NCBI GenBank assembly: GCA_041660065.1
Contig: JBAZXC010000002.1
Coordinates: 170,620-234,619 of the forward strand
Reading direction: 5' to 3'
From: Parcubacteria group bacterium
Lineage (GTDB): Bacteria; Patescibacteriota; Minisyncoccia; Moranbacterales; GCA-2747515
DNA: 64,000 nt
A program made the position numbers and the translations under genes. The notes below the pieces were generated by a model, which saw only the letters and a program-made list of their open reading frames with translations, was not told the origin of the DNA and made no database searches. Shown one piece after another: positions 12,128-46,129 of this stretch (positions are counted from its first letter, which is position 1; every line of letters begins with the position of its first letter).

Positions 12128-13375
12128 TTAATGCAAGTGTCGATCTTTGTCACGTGTTTTTTTGTGAAAAGAGATGGCAAATCGATGCGCTTCCTCACGC
12201 ATGCTTTCCAACAACTCTTTATCGGTAATGATCGCATGATTGACTGGAAAAAATGCACTTTTATAGACATCGACCTTTTTACGCGTTGGCCCTTTGGCAA
12301 CTGCGATCACGGGAATATTTATATCTAGTTTTTGCCATAGATCATCCGCCATGTTGAGATGTCCTTTTCCGCCGTCCAAAACAATCAGCTGCGGTATGCC
12401 CCAATCATCGAGATGATTGAGCCGTCGCGCCAGCACTTCTCGCATCGCGCCCACATCATCGATCCCCTGCACAGACTGCACTTTGAATTTACGGTACTGA
12501 CTTTTATCCGCCACTCCGTTTATAAATACGATCATCGACGCAACCATCGCTTCCCCGCCGATATGTGAAATATCATATGCTTCCACACGCATCTCATGTG
12601 CACTAAATCGCGTAAATGCAATGTCCTTTTTCATCAGCGCAATATCATTGATATGTGTGAGTGCAAAGATCTGCCGTTTCACTTTGTCCGCTTCTTCGAA
12701 TTTTTCTTTTTTTGCCAAAGCGCGCATCTGCTTTTCCAACTTTTCGAGAAGTGCTTTCTTATGCCCGGAGAGAAAAAGCGCGATGTTGCGCATATTGCGT
12801 TTGTAGTCCGCCTCAGAGATCGCGCCGTCATACGGTCCGGGACACAGTCCCATTTGATAATGCAGACACCCTTTTTCACTCTGCTCACTGCGATCATGAA
12901 ATGGAAATATTCGGCGAATGATCTTAAGCGCGATCTTCATCTGATCGCGCGATGTATACGGACCATAAATTTTTCCCTTACGATACATCGCATCCTGAAA
13001 CTGTTCCTTATCAAAATCCGTCTGTCGTACGATCACAACACGCGGAAACCGTTCTTTGGTAATGACAAAAAAAGAAAAACTTTTATCATCTTTTCCGTCA
13101 ATATTATATTTTGGCTTATGCGTGCGGATTAGTTCCGCTTCAAGGATGAGCGCTTCAAGTACGCTATCGGTTTGAATTGTTTCAATGTCTGTTGCTTGCG
13201 CTACCAATCGTTCGATCCGCTCACCGCGCGTATCATGACCGGAAAAATATTGTCGCACGCGATCACGCAATGACGTCGCCTTGCCCACATACAACACCTC
13301 TCGTTTTGCACCACGAAAAAAATACACGCCGGGTGCTTTTGGCAATTCCGTTATTTTTTTCGCGTTATTTTTCAT
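12128..13375 (-). CDS. uvrC: excinuclease ABC subunit C, short form lacking C-terminal HhH domain
   Basis: N-terminal GIY-YIG (PGVYFFRGAKREVLYVGKATSLRDRV), UvrC RNaseH-like endonuclease region (GIPQLIVLDGGKGHLN); 415 aa vs ~600 typical. Confidence 0.8.
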   Translation of the reverse strand: MKNNAKKITELPKAPGVYFFRGAKREVLYVGKATSLRDRVRQYFSGHDTRGERIERLVAQATDIETIQTDSVLEALILEAELIRTHKPKYNIDGKDDKSFSFFVITKERFPRVVIVRQTDFDKEQFQDAMYRKGKIYGPYTSRDQMKIALKIIRRIFPFHDRSEQSEKGCLHYQMGLCPGPYDGAISEADYKRNMRNIALFLSGHKKALLEKLEKQMRALAKKEKFEEADKVKRQIFALTHINDIALMKKDIAFTRFSAHEMRVEAYDISHIGGEAMVASMIVFINGVADKSQYRKFKVQSVQGIDDVGAMREVLARRLNHLDDWGIPQLIVLDGGKGHLNMADDLWQKLDINIPVIAVAKGPTRKKVDVYKSAFFPVNHAIITDKELLESMREEAHRFAISFHKKTRDKDRHLH

Positions 13376-13403
13376 AAATATAGATCATCGTAGCACTGTA
13401 AAT

Positions 13404-13964
13404 CTATTCTTTCTTGGAGCGAGGTTTTTCTTCAGCATGGTCAATTTTCTTTTTTGCCGCAATCATCTGTAATTTGTTGATGATCGCCGATTCTGCAAAT
13501 GAACCGACTTCCGCAAATTGATCTTCAGGGATCATTTCACCATCAAGAGCACCACTCTTCATCACAAACTTATACATGGTCTTCTTTTTTCCGTTGTCGG
13601 AAATTTCACGCGCTCCCTGTATGATGCCCGCAAGCATCACATGATGCCCATTGAGATCGATCGCACAGGTCACGCGGTCACGGTCAATAGTGATATTTTT
13701 AATTGCATGTGTGATTTGCGCTTCCGTCATCATAACATCCCGTCCTGAGAGATCATTGTCGATCAATTTTTTCCAAAAATTTCTATCCGCATTATGACAA
13801 ATTGCTTGCGCTTCACACGTCCCCTCATATTTTCGCGCATTCTTGGTCACAAAACCCTGCCCATCAGCCGTCGGCACAAAAAAAGACCTGTATTCTTCGG
13901 GGATATCTTCAATACTGTGATATTTATTATCATGAGGATCAAATTGTGGTTTTTCTAAAGACAT
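13404..13964 (-). CDS. hypothetical protein
   Basis: ORF only; 28-nt gap to uvrC start, probably co-transcribed. Confidence 0.4.
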   Translation of the reverse strand: MSLEKPQFDPHDNKYHSIEDIPEEYRSFFVPTADGQGFVTKNARKYEGTCEAQAICHNADRNFWKKLIDNDLSGRDVMMTEAQITHAIKNITIDRDRVTCAIDLNGHHVMLAGIIQGAREISDNGKKKTMYKFVMKSGALDGEMIPEDQFAEVGSFAESAIINKLQMIAAKKKIDHAEEKPRSKKE

Positions 13965-14023
13965 GTGTGTGTGCTTAGATTTTTACATTCCCATCATAGC
14001 AATTTTTATGCGCCTTTACCACA

Positions 14024-15475
14024 TCATTTTGACAGATCCAAATCCTCTGTGATCCCAAGTTGATCGACAAATGATTGCACGTGACTCACTACGATCATCG
14101 CACCCTCATATTTTTTGAGTGCCTCCGCAATCACGGGGATATGACGAAAGTTGATATGATTGGTCGGCTCATCGAGAATGAGAAGTCCCGGCTCGAGCAA
14201 CACAAGTTGTGCAAATGCCACCAATCCCTTTTGCCCTTCAGACAAACTGCCGATCTTTGCCTCCATAACATGCTTGGTCAAGAGAAATCCGCTGGCAACA
14301 GCACGCAGTTTTTCCTCTTCTTGTATTTGCATGACATTTAGAAGTGCATCATACACCGTATCATCAAAGTTCAGTGTAGAAAAATCCTGTCGATAATAAC
14401 CCACACGCACACCATCCAATATTTTTGCACCCTCTGTATTGTTTGATGCCAATCGTTCAAGCAGTGTCGTCTTTCCAATACCATTCGGCCCTTTCAAAAG
14501 CAAGTGTTCTTTTTTCTTGAGGACAATATCCACCTTTTTCTCGATGGGTTCGTGATCTTTCATGATGTGCACCGATGTGATCGTGATCACATTCCCCACA
14601 AAATCACTTTGCGCAGGGATCACAAATTTACGGATCGTCTTATCCTCTTTGCGCACATCCACTTTTGATGCTTCCATTTCTGCGATCTCATCACGCATTT
14701 TCTTCGCCACGAGACGCATCTTACCACCTTTGTTTGCGAAGTAATTCATCTTCTCCTTATTGTCCCGAATCTGCTTTTCGAACTGCGCGTTCTTGCGAAT
14801 TTCTTTTTCGATCTGCGCTTTGATCTCCTCTACGACAATATAATAATCCCCCACATACTGATCGATCTTGTGATTGAATATATCGAGATACAACACACCA
14901 TCTGTGAACATGTTGAGGAAATCCGCATCATGAGAGATCACGATGCACGTCTTTTCATACATCATGAGAAACGTGAGCAAATGCCCCACGCCGGAATCAT
15001 CCAAATTGTTCGTCGGCTCATCGAGAAGTAACACGTCAGGCTCTTGGATCAATGCCGAAGCCAGAAGAAGTCGCGCTTGCTGTCCACCGGAAAAGGCGGA
15101 AATCGGTTTGTCCATCGGCAATGTCAGATCGACGGCACGCATCACTTCTTTGATATGTTTGTCCAATTCATAATCCTCTCCTTTAAAATACACGGCAAAA
15201 AATTCTCGCACAGTCAACGTCAGCTGTTCGCGCGGGATCACCTGTTGCGCGCATGCGATCGTTTGTCCGTCATTGATATAAATGTGTCCTGCTGTTGGTT
15301 TGTATGTCCCCATGATCAAGTTAAAAAGTGATGTTTTGCCCGCACCGTTTTGCCCCATGAGAGCTACTTTTTTTCCTTTGCGCAAAGCAAAAGACGCCTC
15401 ATCAAGGATCACCTTGCCGTTCTCATATGCAAAATTCACATCGCTAAAACGAATTGCTATTTCTTCCTGTGCCAT
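14024..15475 (-). CDS. ABC-F family ATPase (tandem ABC domains, no TM)
   Basis: Two Walker A (GQNGAGKTS, GPNGIGKTT), two LSGGQ signatures, linker between; start set at MAQEEI. Confidence 0.85.
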   Translation of the reverse strand: MAQEEIAIRFSDVNFAYENGKVILDEASFALRKGKKVALMGQNGAGKTSLFNLIMGTYKPTAGHIYINDGQTIACAQQVIPREQLTLTVREFFAVYFKGEDYELDKHIKEVMRAVDLTLPMDKPISAFSGGQQARLLLASALIQEPDVLLLDEPTNNLDDSGVGHLLTFLMMYEKTCIVISHDADFLNMFTDGVLYLDIFNHKIDQYVGDYYIVVEEIKAQIEKEIRKNAQFEKQIRDNKEKMNYFANKGGKMRLVAKKMRDEIAEMEASKVDVRKEDKTIRKFVIPAQSDFVGNVITITSVHIMKDHEPIEKKVDIVLKKKEHLLLKGPNGIGKTTLLERLASNNTEGAKILDGVRVGYYRQDFSTLNFDDTVYDALLNVMQIQEEEKLRAVASGFLLTKHVMEAKIGSLSEGQKGLVAFAQLVLLEPGLLILDEPTNHINFRHIPVIAEALKKYEGAMIVVSHVQSFVDQLGITEDLDLSK

Positions 15476-15664
15476 AAACCTTTTTCTAAGATAAAAAATA
15501 TTTTTACTGAATTCCCATTGTACAGGAAAAATAAAAAATGTGCAATCAATGTCTTTAGCGTTATTTATAGACACGCAATATTTATATATTACAAGTCTAT
15601 AATAATAAATCAAAAACGTGCAACTTACACGTTTTTGAATGATATATATCCGGCTATATTTCGA

Positions 15665-16201
15665 CTAGTTCTCAATAATATTTTTTGCTTCTACTACTGC
15701 GATTGTGTTTCTAATAGATTTAGCCTGCTCGTATTTTTTTTGCAACTCATCAAATAATGCTTTTGCATCCTCTTCCACAATTTGCGATCCATTTACTATG
15801 CCATCATATCCACCCACTGGTCTTCTTGGAATATGCCTTCCTCGAAAACCCTTCTCACGCACATTTACAGCAGAACCATTAATTGTTCCTTTGATAATAA
15901 TATCTGCTCCATCCTCCTCCTTTTGCAAATCCGTCTTTGTTAAGATTTCGAATTCCTGTTCCGAAATAACACCCTGAGATTTAAGTTTCCGATACTTTTC
16001 TTCGGTGATTGCATCCATGTGAACTTGACTTTCTACAGTCTCACCATTTTTTAAAATATTTTGTAAAATTGTGTTCCCTTCTTTTGCTCGATCAGCAACA
16101 TTATGTTCATAATTAGTTCGTTTTTGATCTGGAGTTGGCTGAGGTATAAATTGATTTTCAAAACCCATACACTTTGAATTAATGATGATATGATTTGTCA
16201 T
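15665..16201 (-). CDS. hypothetical protein
   Basis: ORF only. Confidence 0.4.
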   Translation of the reverse strand: MTNHIIINSKCMGFENQFIPQPTPDQKRTNYEHNVADRAKEGNTILQNILKNGETVESQVHMDAITEEKYRKLKSQGVISEQEFEILTKTDLQKEEDGADIIIKGTINGSAVNVREKGFRGRHIPRRPVGGYDGIVNGSQIVEEDAKALFDELQKKYEQAKSIRNTIAVVEAKNIIEN

Positions 16202-16232
16202 ATTATCACATCTTTGTTATAAATACAATCTA

Positions 16233-16261
16233 TTGACAAAAATTTAAATACGTGCTATGCT
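16233..16261 (+). promoter_or_regulatory. sigma70-like promoter TTGACA-N17-TATGCT driving the GC-rich + strand locus
   Basis: Consensus -35 and near-consensus -10 with 17-nt spacer. Confidence 0.45.
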
Positions 16262-16466
16262 GGTCCGTTAACATAAAGTTCCTTCATATTTAGTCACACA
16301 AAAAACAGCAAAAGTCGATTTTACATGCATTTTCAAAAATGTGATGGAAAATAATGCGCTCTCAAAAATGTGAGCTTATTTTTCCCGTCGCATCTGCCAA
16401 TATCTGGTCGAAAGCGCAAAACGGGGTCAAAAAAATCCGACACCATGCTCGGAAAAGGAGGCAAAA

Positions 16467-16568
16467 ATGCACAAAGATGGATTGTCGCCGCCCGTACAGG
16501 GCACCTATGAGTCCCTAAGTGGACATTTAATTTTTGATAATACCCTGCCGGCGCCGGCTGCTGCCTGA
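16467..16568 (+). CDS. small ORF, 33 aa (MHKDGLSPPVQGTYESLSGHLIFDNTLPAPAAA)
   Basis: Perfect SD AAAAGGAGG 7 nt before ATG; inside ~57% GC island. Confidence 0.3.
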   Translation: MHKDGLSPPVQGTYESLSGHLIFDNTLPAPAAA

Positions 16569-16617
16569 CAACCTGGCCTCGTCCTTCAACACTGGTACCT
16601 ACCAAAAAAGGAGGTGA

Positions 16618-16698
16618 ATGCGAATTGACGAATCCACGAGCACCGCCCGGATGAAACCCCCTGAAGCGCAATGTTGTAATAACTGTTGCGCTTTTTAA
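16618..16698 (+). CDS. small ORF, 26 aa, Cys-rich C-terminus (MRIDESTSTARMKPPEAQCCNNCCAF)
   Basis: Perfect SD AAGGAGGTGA 7 nt before ATG; followed by intrinsic terminator. Confidence 0.3.
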   Translation: MRIDESTSTARMKPPEAQCCNNCCAF

Positions 16699-16756
16699 AT
16701 TTATTCACAAAACTGTCTGATCGGTCTGATCTACCCAGATTATCTTGCAGCTTGCA

Positions 16757-16790
16757 GGAGCAGGTTTTATAACCTGCTCCTTTCGTTTTT
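16757..16790 (+). terminator. intrinsic terminator GGAGCAGGTT-TTAT-AACCTGCTCC + TTTCGTTTTT
   Basis: 10-bp perfect stem plus T-run; near-identical copy at 17892..17926. Confidence 0.75.
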
Positions 16791-16930
16791 ACAAAACAAA
16801 CATAAGTCACTTTTTACAGCACGAAAACAAATTATTGCTTCTCCTTGTGCCAAACACTTTACTAGAATTTCTTGACAAGAGAGAGAGAGTAAAATGATAC
16901 GTATAGACAATAGGATTTTATATTTACATA

Positions 16931-17377
16931 ATGGAAAATTATCAAAAATATAATATTTTATATCTAATTCAATCGTTCATTGCAATTTTTATTGGAGGTC
17001 TGATTTATATAATTTACCGAACAGACTCCTTGCTTATGTTTAAATGGTTCTACTATTTGAACTTGGATCAAACAATATTTTTTTTGAAATCATTTAGCAT
17101 CCCCGTAAACGATCTCATAAAATATAGTTTACCAGATGCTTTGTGGATATATTCTTATATCATGGCAATGTTATTCTTGTGGAAAGGCGCTGTAAATAGA
17201 AAAAATATTTTATGGATCTTATTTATCCCCCTAATCGGGATAAGCACTGAACTACTGCAAATATATGGATTTTCAGGAACATTCGACGTCGTAGATATTT
17301 TACTTTGTATTTTTGCAATAACATTAGCACTTCTTCAAATACGCTGTTTCAATTTAACAATTAATTATAAAATATGA
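16931..17377 (+). CDS. hypothetical integral membrane protein
   Basis: 4 predicted TM helices; ORF. Confidence 0.45.
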   Translation: MENYQKYNILYLIQSFIAIFIGGLIYIIYRTDSLLMFKWFYYLNLDQTIFFLKSFSIPVNDLIKYSLPDALWIYSYIMAMLFLWKGAVNRKNILWILFIPLIGISTELLQIYGFSGTFDVVDILLCIFAITLALLQIRCFNLTINYKI

Positions 17378-17856
17378 AACAAAGCAAAGAAAAATTTGGA
17401 TCAATAATAGTAATTATGCTATTTGCTTTTTTGGCTATCGGTAGTGCAGATACTACTGAAAAATCAACATCTCAACCTGGATCGACGACAGGTGAATCTC
17501 AACAAAATACAAATACAGCCCCAGAACCTCCAAAAGAAATTACCTACACTCCTGTTACAGCGAATGTACTATGCTCCGAGTACAAATCAAATGAAATCGC
17601 AGCAGACAAAAAATTTAAAGATCAATACCTTGAAGTGACTGGCATTGTCAAAAGTATTGATAGTGATTTCACCGATATGCCGGTTGTACATATAAAGTGT
17701 GGGGGAGAATATGATTTTATTAGCGTAGATTGTCATTTTGAAAGTAAAGATGAAGCAGCAACACTTGAAAAAGACAAGACGATAGTTATCCAGGGACGAA
17801 GTTCTGGTGAAGTAATGGGCAATCCTCAAATTAATACTTGTAAGATAAAAAAATAA
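17374..17856 (+). CDS. secreted/lipoprotein with OB-fold (tRNA_anti-like) domain
   Basis: Signal peptide MKQSKEKFGSIIVIMLFAFLAIGSA; C-terminal region resembles tRNA_anti-like OB-fold lipoproteins. Confidence 0.45.
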   Translation: MKQSKEKFGSIIVIMLFAFLAIGSADTTEKSTSQPGSTTGESQQNTNTAPEPPKEITYTPVTANVLCSEYKSNEIAADKKFKDQYLEVTGIVKSIDSDFTDMPVVHIKCGGEYDFISVDCHFESKDEAATLEKDKTIVIQGRSSGEVMGNPQINTCKIKK

Positions 17857-17891
17857 TTACAACACTAAAGAGCTTGACTTGCAATCTTGCA

Positions 17892-17926
17892 GGAGCAGGT
17901 TTTATAACCTGCTTCTTTTCATTTTT
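17892..17926 (+). terminator. intrinsic terminator, duplicate of 16757..16790
   Basis: GGAGCAGGTTTTATAACCTGCTTC + T-run; ~45 nt including 5' flank CTTGCA..CTTGCAGGAGCAGG shared with first copy. Confidence 0.7.
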
Positions 17927-18010
17927 ACAAAACAAGAATGCAAAGCACACTGCAACTGCGTTACTGCAAAATTTGTAAAACAATAGACGGTCTTTAATTA
18001 TGTATACTGT

Positions 18011-20878
18011 TCATTTCTTTAAAACCTCGCGCAAGAATTTTGCTGTGTAGCTTTCTTTGTAATATTTGATGACTTCTTCCGGAGAACCTGCAACAATAAT
18101 TTTTCCACCGCCAGATCCGCCCTCCGGACCCATGTCGATGATCCAGTCCGCTGTTTTGATCACATCCATATTGTGCTCGATCACCACCACGCTGTTCCCG
18201 CTTTCCACCAATCGATGCAAAACATCGAGCAATTTTGCCACGTCATCAAAGTGCAATCCCGTCGTCGGTTCATCGAGGATATACATCGTTTTGCCTGTTG
18301 CTTTGCGCGCGAGTTCCGTTGCCAGTTTTACACGTTGCGCCTCACCGCCACTGAGGGTTGTCGCACTTTGTCCGAGATGGATATATCCGAGCCCCACGTC
18401 TTGTAATGTCTTGATGATCGTATGGATCGCCGGATACGGCTCAAAAAAATCCACCGCCTCATCAACTGTGAGATCCAACACATCCGCGATCGTTTTGCCA
18501 CGATAGGTAATCTGCAATGTCTCGCTATTATATCGTTTACCTTTGCATACATCGCACGGCAAATACACATCCGCCATAAATTGCATCTCGATCTTGAGCG
18601 CACCATCACCATCACAATTGTCACATCGCCCGCCACGCACATTGAAACTAAATCGTCCCGGTTTATATCCCCGGGCTTTTGCCGCCTTTGTCTGCGCAAA
18701 TAATTCACGGATCGGTGCAAATACACCAGTATAAGTCGCTGGATTGGATCGTGGTGTGCGGCCGATCGGACTTTGGTCGATCAATATCACTTTATCGAGA
18801 TGCTCCACACCAACGATCTCTTGATACTTACCGGGACGCACTGCACTACGCATGAGCTTATGTGCCAATCCTTTATACAGGATTTCTTCAACAAGCGTTG
18901 ATTTCCCACTGCCAGATACGCCCGTGACCACTGTCATCATGCCCAAGGGAAATTCTACGGTGATCCCCTGCAAATTATTTTCTCTCGCACCACGTACTGT
19001 GAGGATCTTTTTATTTTTTATCAAACGTCGATGTTCTGGCACTGGAATGAATTTCTCACCGCGCAAATATTTTGCCGTCAAAGACTCTTTGTTTTGGATC
19101 ACTTTTTCCGGCACATCTGCCACAACGATCCGCCCACCGTGCTTACCTGCACCCGGACCGATATCAACGAGAAAATCCGCCGCACGCATCGTCTCCTCAT
19201 CATGCTCGATCACGATCACCGTATTGCCGAGATCACGTAAATACAGCAATGTTTCCAGAAGCTTTGAATTGTCACGCGCATGCAGTCCGATCGATGGCTC
19301 ATCGAGAATATACAACACACCCACCAACTGCGATCCGATCTGACTCGCCAGTCTGATGCGCTGTGATTCGCCACCGCTGAGTGTGTGCGCACTGCGCGCA
19401 AGCATCAAATATCCCAATCCCACTTTATTCAAAAAACTGAGCCGTGAGATCACTTCTTTAATGATCCGCTCACCGATGATCTTTTCTTGTGTGTTGAGTG
19501 GCAATTTTTCAAAAAATTGTACAGCGTCCGTGATCGTCATTTGCGATATTTCATCAATATGTTTTCCACCGATCTTGATCCACAAAACCTCTTGTTTGTA
19601 TCGACTGCCCTGGCACGCGCTACATGGTTTGCGCGACATATATTGTTCGATATCTTTACGAATACTATCTGATTCTGTTTTTTTGTACCGCTCTTCGAGA
19701 AACCCCACAATACCTTTCCATTCCACAGTAAAACGCCATGTGCTCCCTTTGGCACTTTTCATGCTCACAGGAATTGGATCTGGATCCTCATCGCCATGCA
19801 CCAAAACATCAAATTGTCGCTCGGCCAGATCTTTGAGACGCACATTTTCGGGAATGTGATAATATTGCAAAACGGCATGAAAGATCGCTCCATAGTATGA
19901 GTTTTTCTTTTTATTGCTCCACGGCAATACGCCGCCCTGTGCGATCGTTTTACTTGTATCAGGGATCACCATCGTGTAGTCGATTTCTTTTTTTGTACCC
20001 AAACCCTCACAGGCCGGACACGCACCATATGGCGAATTGAAACTGAAGAGGCGCGGCTCCAAATCGGGAAAAACGATCTTTGGATGGCGATGGCATGCAA
20101 ATTTTTGATTATATACAGTCACGGATTTTTTCTTTTTGTCATAAGGACGACGTACATATACCAATCCATCCGCGATCTTGAGCGAGATCTCCACAGCCTC
20201 AAAAAGCCGTGAGATTTCTTCCGCATCCGCCTTCATCGTATCTACGATGATCTCGATATTGTGTTTTTTATTGCGGTCCAATGCCAACTCACTGGCGGCA
20301 TCCAAATTGTGCACCTCTCCATTGATATATGCCTCGAGAAATCCCCTGTCCCACATATCGGAAAATAGTTTCAAATAGGTACCCTTGCGTGCGCGCACGA
20401 CAGGCGCACAAATTTCAATCTCCTCGCCTTGTGCATTTTCAATGATCTGCGCAACGATCTCATCGGTCGAGAGCACTGTGATCGGTTCATGACACTCCGG
20501 ACAATGTGGCACACCGATCTTTGCCCAGAGAAGACGCAGATAATCATGCACCTCTGTCACCGTCCCTACCGTAGAACGAGGATTGTGTGACGTCGTTTTC
20601 TGATCGATCGAAATCGCCGGCGACAATCCCTCGATCGTATCCACATCCGGTTTATCCATCTGCCCCAAAAACTGCCGCGCATAACTGGACAAACTCTCCA
20701 GATACCGTCGTTGACCTTCTGCAAAGATCGTATCAAACGCCAGTGTGGATTTCCCGCTTCCGGACAAACCGGTAAACACCGTAAAACTGTCTCGCGGAAT
20801 CGTGAGATTGATATTTTTGAGATTATTTTCTCGTGCGCCTTTGATGACAATATAGTCCGATTTATCTTTCATAGTCAT
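18011..20878 (-). CDS. uvrA: excinuclease ABC subunit A
   Basis: Two ABC ATPase modules with zinc-finger insertions ([13 protein letters not shown], CPxC motifs, LSGGE); ORF-track N-terminal 131 aa judged non-coding, start at [20 protein letters not shown]. Confidence 0.9.
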
Positions 20879-20881
20879 CAC

Positions 20882-20910
20882 AGTATAGATCATAAATGAT
20901 GATCTTTCAA
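20882..20910 (-). promoter_or_regulatory. uvrA promoter TTGAAA-N17-TATACT whose spacer is the palindrome GATCAT-N5-ATGATC (20888..20904); candidate LexA operator; leaderless or near-leaderless start
   Basis: Read on coding strand: TTGAAAGATCATCATTTATGATCTATACTGTGATG. Confidence 0.4.
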
Positions 20911-20984
20911 GTAATGATGAAATAATCATTGACAAAGACCTATCAAAATACACGTCTTTGCGAGGAATGCAGTGATAACGGAAT

Positions 20985-21043
20985 GACGAAGCAATCTCAC
21001 TAAAATATGCTGTTTTTCGTGCAGTGATCGAGATTGCTTCGTC
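20985..21043. repeat. 14-bp perfect inverted repeat GACGAAGCAATCTC / GAGATTGCTTCGTC with 31-nt loop upstream of uvrA
   Basis: Read from sequence; loop contains GCAGTGAT repeated at 20970 and 21022. Confidence 0.5.
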
Positions 21044-21095
21044 GCTACACTTCGTTCCGATCCTCGTAAAGACGAGACTAATAAGTCCACTATCT

Positions 21096-21644
21096 TTATA
21101 TCTTGGAAAAAGGTGAGTGGTTACTATATTGTGCGATAAAATCACTCGGACGCACCCAATCCTCTTTTTTTGTACGCTTCTGCTCTGACTTGAAATATCC
21201 AGGTAAAACAGTTCCGTCCCATGCTCCCACATAGATCCCAAAATGCAGATGTTCCTCTTGCCACCAGCCATTATCCACCGTATTGCTCTTACCTACCAAT
21301 CCGATCACATCTCCCATGTCGACGCGCGCACCTTTTTTCTTGTTTCGCTCACCGAGATGTCCATACAATGTGTAAAAAAGTTTATGTGTCACTGGATGTT
21401 TATGCACCACGATGATGATATTACCCCAATTACCTTTTGTCGCACTGCCCGCATGCAGTGCCGAATACACGACAGACCCGCGACCAATTGATACGACAGG
21501 CGTCCCCGCAGAGCAGATGACATCTTCACCGAGATGTTCACCCCAATCCACACCTCCAAAAATCCCATACACACCAAAACCCAACCCATTCACACGGTAT
21601 TCATCGACTGGGTAACACAATTGTCGTGCATAAGGATACGCCAT
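21096..21644 (-). CDS. M23-family metallopeptidase
   Basis: HxxxD (HLGEDV) and HxH (HLHFG) zinc motifs of the LytM/lysostaphin family. Confidence 0.8.
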   Translation of the reverse strand: MAYPYARQLCYPVDEYRVNGLGFGVYGIFGGVDWGEHLGEDVICSAGTPVVSIGRGSVVYSALHAGSATKGNWGNIIIVVHKHPVTHKLFYTLYGHLGERNKKKGARVDMGDVIGLVGKSNTVDNGWWQEEHLHFGIYVGAWDGTVLPGYFKSEQKRTKKEDWVRPSDFIAQYSNHSPFSKI

Positions 21645-40985: not shown

Positions 40986-41128
40986 CTAAGAGATACGAGG
41001 AGTGGCTATGTGTGTATTGAAATACACTTTTTACATGGCACATTTCACACATATTGAGATTTTTGCTATGATATCTATAAATAATTGCACCATCACCATT
41101 AGATCATCATACTATTGAGGAGGATTTC

Positions 41129-41284
41129 ATGGCTGGACACGGAACCAACAAAACAGGCAACAAAAAAAGCAATGGACGGCGAGCCGGAATCAAGACAAAA
41201 GGTCGTGCCAAACAAATGCCACCCACAATCGCTGCCAAAAGAGAGCAGGAGAAGCGTGAAAGAAGCAGAAATAACCGCTATTAG
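41129..41284 (+). CDS. 51-aa lysine/arginine-rich small protein (module copy 1)
   Basis: MAGHGTNKTGNKKSNGRRAGIKTKGRAKQMPPTIAAKREQEKRERSRNNRY; SD GAGGAGG; paralog at 45332..45487 with >90% DNA identity over first 80 nt. Confidence 0.45.
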   Translation: MAGHGTNKTGNKKSNGRRAGIKTKGRAKQMPPTIAAKREQEKRERSRNNRY

Positions 41285-41311
41285 TCGTTAAAACGACCAA
41301 CAACTCCCCAT

Positions 41312-41348
41312 GGAGACAGTGTGCAACATCACCTGTCTCCCTTTTTTA
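41312..41348 (+). terminator. intrinsic terminator GGAGACAG..CTGTCTCC + T-run (conserved in module copy 2 at ~45515..45550)
   Basis: Read from sequence. Confidence 0.6.
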
Positions 41349-41441
41349 ATGTGTTGCATTTTTATCAATTTTGTGTTAGGATGGCACGTCGTGTACATTT
41401 AACAATTTCCTAAACAAACCCTACATCACGGAGGAATACCT

Positions 41442-41732
41442 ATGCAGAGCATCACATCACGTGACATTATCAGCACAAAGTACACCATCATAGATGGCAA
41501 ATCAGTCATCCTCATCTTGCTTGTGAAGTTGCCCCTGGTCAGACTACCTCTTGAACGAACTACATGGCTTGTTGACAAATCTGCACCGACCAATAGCGTT
41601 GAAATCTCAGAAGAGCCCAATCAAGGAACCGCAGAATGTGATTTTACCATTGTAGGTGACACGATGGAAACATTGCGCGCATTTGGACATCAGATTCTCA
41701 CCGACTCATTTAATGAAATATTGTGGAGATAA
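41442..41732 (+). CDS. 96-aa hypothetical protein (module copy 1)
   Basis: Paralog of 45647..45937 (~35% aa identity, shared C-terminal ..FARQILTD.F); own SD and terminator. Confidence 0.45.
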   Translation: MQSITSRDIISTKYTIIDGKSVILILLVKLPLVRLPLERTTWLVDKSAPTNSVEISEEPNQGTAECDFTIVGDTMETLRAFGHQILTDSFNEILWR

Positions 41733-41959
41733 CCTGGACTCTCCCCTATCGCCACAACCGACGACATGTCTATACATGTTGTCGGTTTTTATTTTTTATT
41801 AATTTATGTTAATTGTCTTTTTTTAATAATGTATCACTGTACGCCCCCCCTTGCATGCTCATGATAACAATTATTATTACTCCTTGACTAATTTTTGAAT
41901 ATAAAAAAGCGTGACCCTCATTAAGTCACGCCTACTTTGATATTTGCAGAGATTTCTGC

Positions 41960-44545: not shown

Positions 44546-45331
44546 GGATATATTTTGTTTTAAATTAGCACATTCATTCTACCCTTTTTCCCTATTCCCT
44601 GCCAATGTGATGCAATTTTTAAACTCTTCAGAATTCCCGAATGGTTGGGGATGTTTAAAATCCCTCTTTAATTCCTACCTACCGGCAGGCAGGCCCCCTT
44701 TACAAAAAGGAGATATGCAAAATTTTTTTGTGTGATAACAAATTTACAGCCAAGCACAGGTAATAAAAATGGGCATCAGTGATTTACACCAATGCCCTTT
44801 GCAAATTTACCAAGGGTTCTTCCCTCTTTTTTACAGATTTAACGGATCAATTTCGTCATGATTATCCAAAACGATCATCCCCTCCACGGTAATGTATCGT
44901 ATGGGAATTTTGACTCCAGGTGGCAACACAAGTCCATTCGTCTTGCTAATATCTTTTTTTTACAATGATATCGAGTCGCTTGGCTCTCGTCTCTTTCCTT
45001 TGGCGATCCCTCCCCACTTCCACTACGCGATCATAGTGAATTTGTTGACGGTATTGAATCGCTTGTGATCTCATCTTATCCCTATTTTGGCACCCTCTTT
45101 TCATCTTGTCCCCCATATTTTTGTTGAATTTGATCAAACTGGAGACTCATCTTATCCGCTTGTGTATTTATCTAAAGAACTTCGTTTTGTAATCGACTAT
45201 AAAAAAGAGTACACGGCGAGCCGGCTCATGTCAATTTTTTTGCACATTTCACACGCATTGCGTTTTTTGCTATGATAGCAATAAATGGATTTTACCGAAC
45301 CATAAACCATCCCAATGACAAGGAGGATCTC

Positions 45332-45487
45332 ATGGCTGGACACGGAACTAACAAAACAGGCAACAAAAAAAGTAATGGACGGCGAGCCGGAATCAAAACA
45401 AAAGGTCGTACCAAACCAGTGCCCCCCAATATCGTTGCAAAAAGAGAACAAAAAAAGCGCGAAAAGGGTCGACCTACCCGCTATTAG
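45332..45487 (+). CDS. 51-aa basic small protein (module copy 2)
   Basis: MAGHGTNKTGNKKSNGRRAGIKTKGRTKPVPPNIVAKREQKKREKGRPTRY; conserved promoter (..CACATTTCACAC..TTTTTGCTATGATA) shared with copy 1. Confidence 0.45.
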   Translation: MAGHGTNKTGNKKSNGRRAGIKTKGRTKPVPPNIVAKREQKKREKGRPTRY

Positions 45488-45646
45488 TCGCTCAAACGAC
45501 CAATAGCTCTCTACGGAGACAGGATGCAACATCACCTGTCTCTATTTTTTTGGCGTTGTGTATTTTTCAATTGTGATATACAATGACTCATCGCGTTATT
45601 TAACAGTTTTTTTTGGAAAAACCCCTACATTTCGGAGGAGTATTTC

Positions 45647-45937
45647 ATGATAAAAATCACTACGGACGATATCATCAACACAAAGTGCATCATCACGGGT
45701 GACAAAGTAACCGTCCTCATCATCCACCTGAAAGGTAAGGTGCTAAAAATTCCCCTTGATAATACCATGTGGATCACTACAAATAAAATGCCGGAAAATA
45801 CAGTTTTGATCGCGTCAAAAGAACCCAACGATGAATCTGCTGAACGCACTTTCATCATTGCGAGCTCTTCGGTCGAATACTTGCACGAATTTGCACGTCA
45901 AATTCTTACTGACACATTTGATCCAAACGAATTCTAA
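45647..45937 (+). CDS. 96-aa hypothetical protein (module copy 2)
   Basis: Paralog of 41442..41732; followed by terminator CGACGACATGTGTAGACATGTGTCGG-like hairpin + T-run. Confidence 0.45.
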   Translation: MIKITTDDIINTKCIITGDKVTVLIIHLKGKVLKIPLDNTMWITTNKMPENTVLIASKEPNDESAERTFIIASSSVEYLHEFARQILTDTFDPNEF

Positions 45938-46129
45938 ATGCCCCGATACAACCGACACATGTCTACACATGTCGTCGGTTTTTTTATCTTTTTGATTCGC
46001 GTTGATTACCTTGGAATCACTTACGTTATCTACTCAAAGATCAATTCCGCGATCTTCCCTCTAATAAGTTCTTTGAAAAACTGTATTGTGCTCTGCCCCA
46101 TATTTTTATTTTTAAATTATTTACAACGT

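Follow-up and report, generated by a model that had tools for sequence, protein, structure and literature searches.

An unannotated locus between uvrA and an ABC-F gene

A short plus-strand locus lies at the 16233-16790 interval of the window, which is the whole 64,000-nt stretch of DNA analysed here. The genes around it are arranged in the order uvrC, p186, ABC-F and p178 (all on the minus strand), the locus itself, p148 and p160 (plus strand), and uvrA (minus strand). Neither the JGI nor the PGAP annotation contains a gene call between p178 and p160, and the locus tags there, WC819_03405 and WC819_03410, follow directly on each other. The DNA originates from JGI metagenome 3300037810, and its UvrA protein is at most 74% identical to that of any GTDB species representative, the nearest ones being Paceibacterota, Moranbacteria and Parcubacteria. 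Overall, the locus is best described as an unannotated unit of about 430 bases that is common to two uncultivated sister species: the one from which the window derives and a second one, named species B hereafter. The features that we recognised are the following:

16233-16261, plus strand: sigma-70-type promoter, TTGACA, 17-nt spacer, TG-extended TATGCT; 10 of 12 matches
16339-16393, plus strand: H1, an imperfect hairpin of about 25 bp in the leader; fold z = -4.4
16436-16461, plus strand: small hairpin UCCGA-loop-UCGGA followed by SD1; stem identical in species B, loop different
16453-16461, plus strand: first Shine-Dalgarno site (SD1), AAAAGGAGG; identical in species B
16467-16568, plus strand: ORF1, 33 codons, peptide MHKDGLSPPVQGTYESLSGHLIFDNTLPAPAAA
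16569-16592, plus strand: variable stretch separating ORF1 from the second Shine-Dalgarno block; 37.5% identity to species B, with a 7-nt indel
16593-16620, plus strand: second Shine-Dalgarno block (SD2) and start, CACTGGTACCTACCAAAAAAGGAGGTGA; start codon 3 nt past GGAGG
16618-16698, plus strand: ORF2, 26 codons, ending in CCNNCCAF; four Cys codons in six
16663-16696, plus strand: intrinsic terminator T1, stem 16663-16694 with core GCGCAA/TTGCGC, U-run 16692-16696; z = -4.5
16756-16790, plus strand: intrinsic terminator T2, 11-bp stem, hairpin 16756-16781 plus T-run; z = -4.65
17871-17935, plus strand: T3, which duplicates T2 and its flanks, located after the p148-p160 cassette and not part of the small gene

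An earlier sequence-only reading had described a stretch of about 300 bp with a GC content of about 57%, contrasting sharply with its surroundings. The first figure was overstated, since the GC content of the locus is 43.5-44.4% overall and the richest 300-nt stretch (16370-16669) reaches only 52.0%. The contrast stood in part: this stretch is among the top 2.5% of windows, but its GC level is equalled at 14 other places within the window, and the difference is mainly due to the unusual AT-richness of the three neighbour genes (p178, 35% GC; p148, 28%; p160, 35%), most genes in the window having 44-50% GC.

The neighbourhood is variable in its own right. The region from uvrA through ABC-F to uvrC (12128-21271), when compared with L004, L089 and L095-L101, proved particularly prone to small insertions within this lineage, and the relatives carry differing, mostly orphan genes between the conserved uvrA, ABC-F and uvrC. 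One such gene is p178 (15665-16201, minus strand), which encodes an orphan protein of 178 aa, without homologues among 5.8 billion proteins. It forms part of a species-specific insertion (15531-16229) between ABC-F and the promoter of the locus, where species B has 54 nt. Elsewhere in the window we observed two paralogous modules, 4.2 kb apart (41038-41750 and 45242-45950), each of them consisting of a conserved promoter-like block, a 51-aa ORF led by a Shine-Dalgarno sequence and a 96-aa ORF; identity amounts to 84% at the DNA level (over 230 nt) and to 41% between the two 96-aa proteins, and Pfam gave no matches.

Comparison with a sister species delimits the unit

Species B, represented by L089, was reached through the ABC-F protein and its cluster at 90% identity, and L090 and L092 carry an identical locus sequence. 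At the protein level, its ABC-F and UvrA are 97.5% and 95% identical to those of the window species. As a neutral yardstick we took five flanking genes, whose four-fold degenerate sites (n = 878) are 67% identical between the two species. The gene order in species B is uvrA, a gap of 673 nt, ABC-F, the p186 homologue and uvrC; p178, p148 and p160 are absent, and the locus sits in the 673-nt gap.

Window positions 16230-16696 align to L089 9953-9501 with 80.7% identity over 477 nt. Homology runs from the -35 box to the U-run of T1, and the flanks are unalignable (36-37% identity). These limits define the unit as extending from the promoter to T1, and not from the promoter to T2. Moreover, in species B the unit stands alone and is convergent with uvrA, the 3′ end of which is the next feature on its strand, which makes it independent of the neighbour genes present in the window. 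All the comparative evidence presented here comes from one pairwise comparison, species B being the single independent homologue. Judged by this alignment, the unit is real, under selection and independent of its present neighbours; the same alignment establishes where it begins and ends, and shows that the promoter, H1, SD1, ORF1, SD2 and T1 are conserved and that ORF2 is not.

A conserved promoter on the plus strand

The promoter that had been proposed from the letters alone (TTGACA-N17-TATGCT) was indeed found at 16233-16261, with a TG-extended -10 box in addition; no promoter-like site in the 3 kb scanned was better. Its hexamers keep the 17-nt spacing and are conserved against diverged flanks, as expected of a sigma-70-type promoter: 30 of 32 bases (94%) are identical in species B, whose -10 box reads TATATT instead of TATGCT, and the sequences cannot be aligned upstream of the -35 box. 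We infer that the unit is transcribed, and transcription would start near position 16268.

When the whole locus was folded, the minus strand gave a lower score than the plus strand (z = -4.7 versus -2.3), as did the minus strand of the GC-rich core (-2.4 versus -0.35). We considered an RNA encoded on the minus strand and rejected it, because no promoter was found on that strand and the conserved promoter, the U-runs and the AT skew all favour the plus strand; the AT skew of the plus strand at the locus is positive, as in the plus-strand genes of the window. A terminator-like U-run on the minus strand (16436-16429) is broken in species B.

The leader hairpin H1 shows the strongest conservation within the unit

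Sequence identity with species B was highest at H1, where 52 of 55 bases are identical (94.5%, compared with 67% at neutral sites). The probability of finding three or fewer differences in 55 nt at the neutral rate, calculated from the yardstick and the alignment, is about 1e-6. The three substitutions (AU to GU, GU to AU and CG to UG) all keep the pairing, and the hairpin also folds significantly in species B (z = -3.7). Conservation extends slightly beyond the hairpin, with only three differences in the 71 nt of the leader block 16339-16409.

Apart from H1, only T1 and T2 fold better than shuffled sequence on the plus strand, and the GC-rich core folds no better than shuffles (z = -0.35). 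No match was obtained with Rfam at the gathering threshold across the whole 64-kb window, so that no known non-coding RNA family was found over the region; permissive Rfam scans of the locus and of its copy in species B returned chance-level matches only (E ≥ 0.17, far below threshold), and ARAGORN found no tRNA or tmRNA. Thus, the suggestion that the locus might encode a structured RNA holds for the AT-rich 5′ leader, where H1 is 94.5% conserved, but not for the GC-rich core to which attention had been drawn. No paralogous copies of the leader were detected, either with covariance model R1 over 479 kb of related loci or with nhmmer. RNAalifold proposed a long-range pairing between AAAGCGCAA (16412-16420) and the 3′ arm of T1; both partners are conserved, without covariation, and in the underlying alignment the arms of T1 had been misaligned by MAFFT.

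Both H1 and the promoter (94-95% identical) exceed ORF1 (80%) in conservation. This higher constraint on the leader points to a function at the RNA level as well, and H1 would accordingly act either in the control of ORF1 or as a separate regulatory RNA.

ORF1 probably encodes a small protein

The two micro-ORFs of 33 and 26 aa reported previously are present at 16467-16568 and 16618-16698. Shine-Dalgarno sequences (AAAAGGAGG and AAGGAGGTGA) do precede both ATG codons, but at 5 and 3 nt, counted from GGAGG, rather than at the 7 nt that had been given. Two GGAGG-N3-10-ATG sites within 439 nt occurred in 0.03% of 20,000 dinucleotide shuffles (P = 3e-4), and in the window AGGAGG followed by ATG marks mostly true gene starts. 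For ORF1, the A-rich spacer of 5 nt between GGAGG and ATG lies inside the 5-8 nt range of the well-supported genes of the window, and SD1 and the start codon, placed at this functional spacing, are identical in species B.

The reading frame is preserved between the two species. ORF1 of species B has 31 codons and encodes MYKDGFSPPVQGTCESLSGHYFDNTLSPAQA, with start, stop and frame all kept, and the two indels that separate both versions are exactly 3 nt each. Substitutions are distributed as 3/3/8 over the codon positions (8 of 14 at the third), five of the changed codons are purely synonymous, and six residues are altered. When the same substitutions were placed at random in a Monte Carlo analysis, six or fewer amino-acid changes together with an intact ORF were obtained in 1.4% of the cases (P = 0.014); the bias towards codon position 3 taken alone gave P = 0.058 in a binomial test. 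This coding signal amounts to 14 substitutions and two indels in one homologue. Regarding codon usage, the log-odds of ORF1 (-0.10) is the best of its three frames and near the lower tail of real-gene windows.

Searches for protein relatives were negative. None of the frames of the locus matched a family in Pfam, NCBIfam or PHROGs, and phmmer with ORF1 against 1.84 billion representative proteins retrieved only translated CRISPR arrays sharing GLSPPV.GT, a match that we consider, from the sequences compared, to be due to chance. A CRISPR array or remnant at the locus itself was discarded: only 17 of the 29 positions agree with the E. coli type I-E repeat, no internal repeat exceeds 15 of 29, and TRF found nothing. 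As a side observation on the library, many of its "proteins" result from translating GC-rich CRISPR arrays in three frames (GLSPPVRG / SIPARAGEP / VYPRPCGG), and such translated arrays (P0028-P0060) yield deceptively low E-values with short queries because they are repetitive.

Taken together, the comparison indicates that ORF1 probably gives rise to a small hydrophilic protein of 31-33 residues. Of the small proteins suspected earlier, the first is supported by its conserved SD, start, stop, frame and third-position bias, whereas the second (see below) is not conserved.

The second start site is conserved but ORF2 is not

The second Shine-Dalgarno block contains AAAAAGGAGGTGA, which is identical in species B, and is followed at the same aligned position by a start codon that is ATG in the window and GTG in species B. 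Its spacing of 3 nt is shorter than that of any well-supported gene of the window (5-8 nt). The ORF that follows behaves differently. In species B, a 1-nt deletion right after the start codon leads to an ORF of 12 codons in another frame, and both the CCNNCCAF ending and the stop are lost. With a codon score of -0.24, the frame of ORF2 is the worst of the three. The Cys codons of the CCNNCCAF terminus, which had been correctly read from the window, lie in the arms of T1, where the sequence changes between the two species and the pairing is kept. On the basis of this comparison, ORF2 is not conserved as a coding sequence. The eye-catching Cys-rich peptide is a product of the terminator hairpin sequence, while the strongest constraint resides in the plain AT-rich leader. 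As regards peptide conservation and RNA covariation, the comparison that had been recommended for the locus, in the one species available the frame of ORF1 is kept and that of ORF2 lost, and the pairing of H1 and T1 is kept.

Sequestration of SD2 by an upstream CCUACC is predicted in the window; in species B the pairing partner differs and the fold is not significant, and hence this candidate was not supported.

Tandem terminators and a duplicated repeat

T1 was missed by the sequence-only reading. It overlaps the end of ORF2 and constitutes the conserved 3′ boundary of the unit. Although only 57% identical to its counterpart in species B, its hairpin is kept, with at least two pairs changed on both sides; in species B it forms a perfect 10-bp stem (GCGCAACAAT/ATTGTTGCGC) followed by a U-run of 6 (z = -5.3). 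Both structure and U-run of this intrinsic terminator are therefore conserved. A decayed T2-like homologue is found just after T1 in species B and folds non-significantly. T2 may act as a back-up terminator to T1.

The terminator T2 had been noticed to recur almost identically after the next operon, and we could confirm it (17891-17925). The copy has its hairpin at about 17891-17916 and a single mismatch in the 33 nt of 17886-17918, with no such match expected by chance, and it is embedded in a direct repeat of about 59-65 nt with 88% identity (16737-16799 versus 17871-17935). T2 and T3 bracket an AT-rich cassette (16931-17856) that is absent from species B and comprises p148 (VanZ-like) and p160 (tRNA_anti-like lipoprotein). 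This arrangement would be explained most simply by insertion of the cassette next to T2, the site being duplicated in the process. Elsewhere, one p148 homologue lies near a tyrosine recombinase (L087). As tandem intrinsic (Rho-independent) terminators, T1 and T2 are ordinary GC-rich hairpins followed by U-runs, T1 being kept by compensatory change; nothing about them is unusual except that T2 and its copy T3 bracket a cassette absent from species B.

The unit is so far known from two sister species

The next relatives, whose ABC-F proteins are 87-90% identical, have either a spacer of 88-89 nt between uvrA and ABC-F (L095 and L096) or an unrelated gene of 235-237 aa in that slot (L097-L101). 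The locus was not detected in any of them (L095-L101) by nhmmer, by tblastn or with the leader covariance model. The possibility that the locus is a remnant of the 235-aa gene was examined and dismissed, since tblastn revealed no similarity. Inspection of the synteny around uvrA in 80 GTDB genomes yielded no homologue of the locus and a variable uvrA-uvrC slot, and p148 homologues elsewhere lack such an upstream region. No match was found in two metagenome scans with 12 back-translated seeds, or in three viral scans and blastn searches against phage and plasmid collections. As far as these searches reach, the unit is lineage-restricted, having been found nowhere outside the two sister species.

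A small-protein mRNA with a structured leader as the favoured interpretation

We favour, with a confidence only somewhat better than even, the interpretation that the locus is an independent, lineage-restricted small gene. Its product would be the mRNA of a small protein, with a structured leader that is itself functional, and this mRNA may be a dual-function RNA. According to this model, a strong sigma-70-type promoter would drive a plus-strand RNA of about 430 nt ending at T1, with T2 as a back-up. The RNA would comprise three parts: a leader of about 200 nt that includes the 55-nt hairpin H1, under strong sequence-level constraint; an SD-led ORF of 31-33 codons, probably translated into a small hydrophilic protein; and a 3′ part running into T1, with a conserved second SD and start whose frame and peptide are not conserved. 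Against the small-protein reading we note the low log-odds of ORF1 (-0.10), the P value of 0.058 for the third-position bias, the orphan status of the peptide and the missing call in the JGI and PGAP annotations. The greater conservation of the leader with respect to ORF1 is consistent with the RNA, rather than the ORF1 peptide, being the main product, and this may be the case.

The locus resembles the bacterial small-protein genes (≤50 aa) that are missed by annotation in its short SD-led ORF, its own promoter and terminator, and a frame conserved in a relative. It differs from them in that it belongs to no family, is present in two sister species and corresponds to a 430-nt RNA whose leader is more conserved than the ORF, the translation of which we infer. 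Dual-function sRNAs, such as SgrS/SgrT, RNAIII/hld and SR1/SR1P, offer a second term of comparison. These are likewise RNAs of a few hundred nt that combine a conserved structured non-coding part with a small ORF and end at an intrinsic terminator; unlike them, the locus has no known target, base-pairing seed or chaperone, and shares no sequence or structure similarity with them (Rfam negative).

The main rival of the small-protein reading is a purely non-coding regulatory RNA, in which the leader hairpin and the two SD-like sites would bind a protein, mRNAs or the 16S 3′ end, with ORF1 as an untranslated by-product. We regard it as a possibility to be taken seriously, albeit an unlikely one. 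It would account well for H1 and the promoter being 94-95% conserved when ORF1 is 80% conserved, for the pairing kept by the H1 substitutions, for the weak codon statistics of an ORF1 that lacks protein homologues, and for a second SD and start conserved even though ORF2 is not. It would not predict, however, the in-frame 3-nt indels, the kept start and stop and the third-position bias of ORF1. Besides, SD1 with its 5-nt A-rich spacer and ATG forms a canonical initiation site for this genome, the GC-rich core shows no excess of structure on the plus strand (z = -0.35), and Rfam gave no match.

An elaboration in which both RNA and ribosome take part can also be envisaged. The locus might represent a new dual-function regulatory RNA of Patescibacteria, in which the 71-nt block 16339-16409 (including H1) would be a new protein- or RNA-binding motif, and the SD2/start would attract ribosomes that, on moving into T1, determine the 3′ end or the stability of the transcript, whatever the peptide. 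We put this forward as a speculative proposal with a rather small chance of being correct.

A decaying or neutral leftover, either a gene remnant or inserted DNA whose SD sites and ORFs are relics without present function, seems distinctly improbable. Such an origin would suit a locus whose slot, between uvrA and ABC-F, is variable, which is missing from the next relatives and orphan in all databases searched, and which contains a clearly drifted ORF2. Neutral drift is nevertheless hard to reconcile with an identity of 80.7% against 67% at neutral sites, with blocks of 94-95% that drop to about 37% at the flanks and at the internal spacer, with the compensatory changes in T1, or with the kept promoter.

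It is very unlikely that the locus is the 5′ leader or attenuator of the p148-p160 operon, with translation of ORF2 through T1 controlling read-through by analogy with polycysteine or other leader peptides. Polycysteine short ORFs act as attenuators in mycobacteria (bioRxiv 10.1101/834739), and, like these and the classical leader-peptide attenuators, the locus has a short ORF with clustered Cys codons (four in six) and an overlapping RNA hairpin, here T1. In addition, no compatible promoter precedes p148, the sole candidate having a -10 box that overlaps the ATG. In contrast to those systems, ORF2 is SD-led and not leaderless, its Cys codons and frame are not conserved, the hairpin is the terminator at the end of the unit, and in species B there is no regulated gene downstream. 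There the locus exists without p148-p160 and faces the 3′ end of uvrA, which contradicts an ancestral role of this kind and implies that in origin the locus was not the leader of p148-p160. The strong T2 between T1 and p148, and the p148 homologues that lack such a leader, also speak against it.

Finally, a two-peptide bacteriocin or RiPP precursor pair, which two short SD-led ORFs and the CCNNCC C-terminus of the second had brought to mind, is barely credible and was rejected, given that ORF2 is not conserved, that its Cys motif is lost in species B and that within 10 kb there is no maturase, exporter, immunity or radical-SAM gene; the ABC protein next to the locus belongs to the ABC-F type, carrying two ATPase domains and lacking a membrane domain, and no precursor family was matched.

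Returning to the small gene with a structured leader, its biological reach is limited, as it concerns only two sister species and no function can be assigned to it; the locus is contained in four or five samples, and the organism occurs in JGI 3300037810 and 3300034048, SRR18595301 and ERR3245381-83. Patescibacteria (CPR) have small and poorly annotated genomes, and hardly anything has been learned so far about the small proteins and regulatory RNAs that they contain. For this group, the locus supplies an unannotated unit with a defined promoter, a terminator, a conserved leader hairpin and a probable micro-protein.
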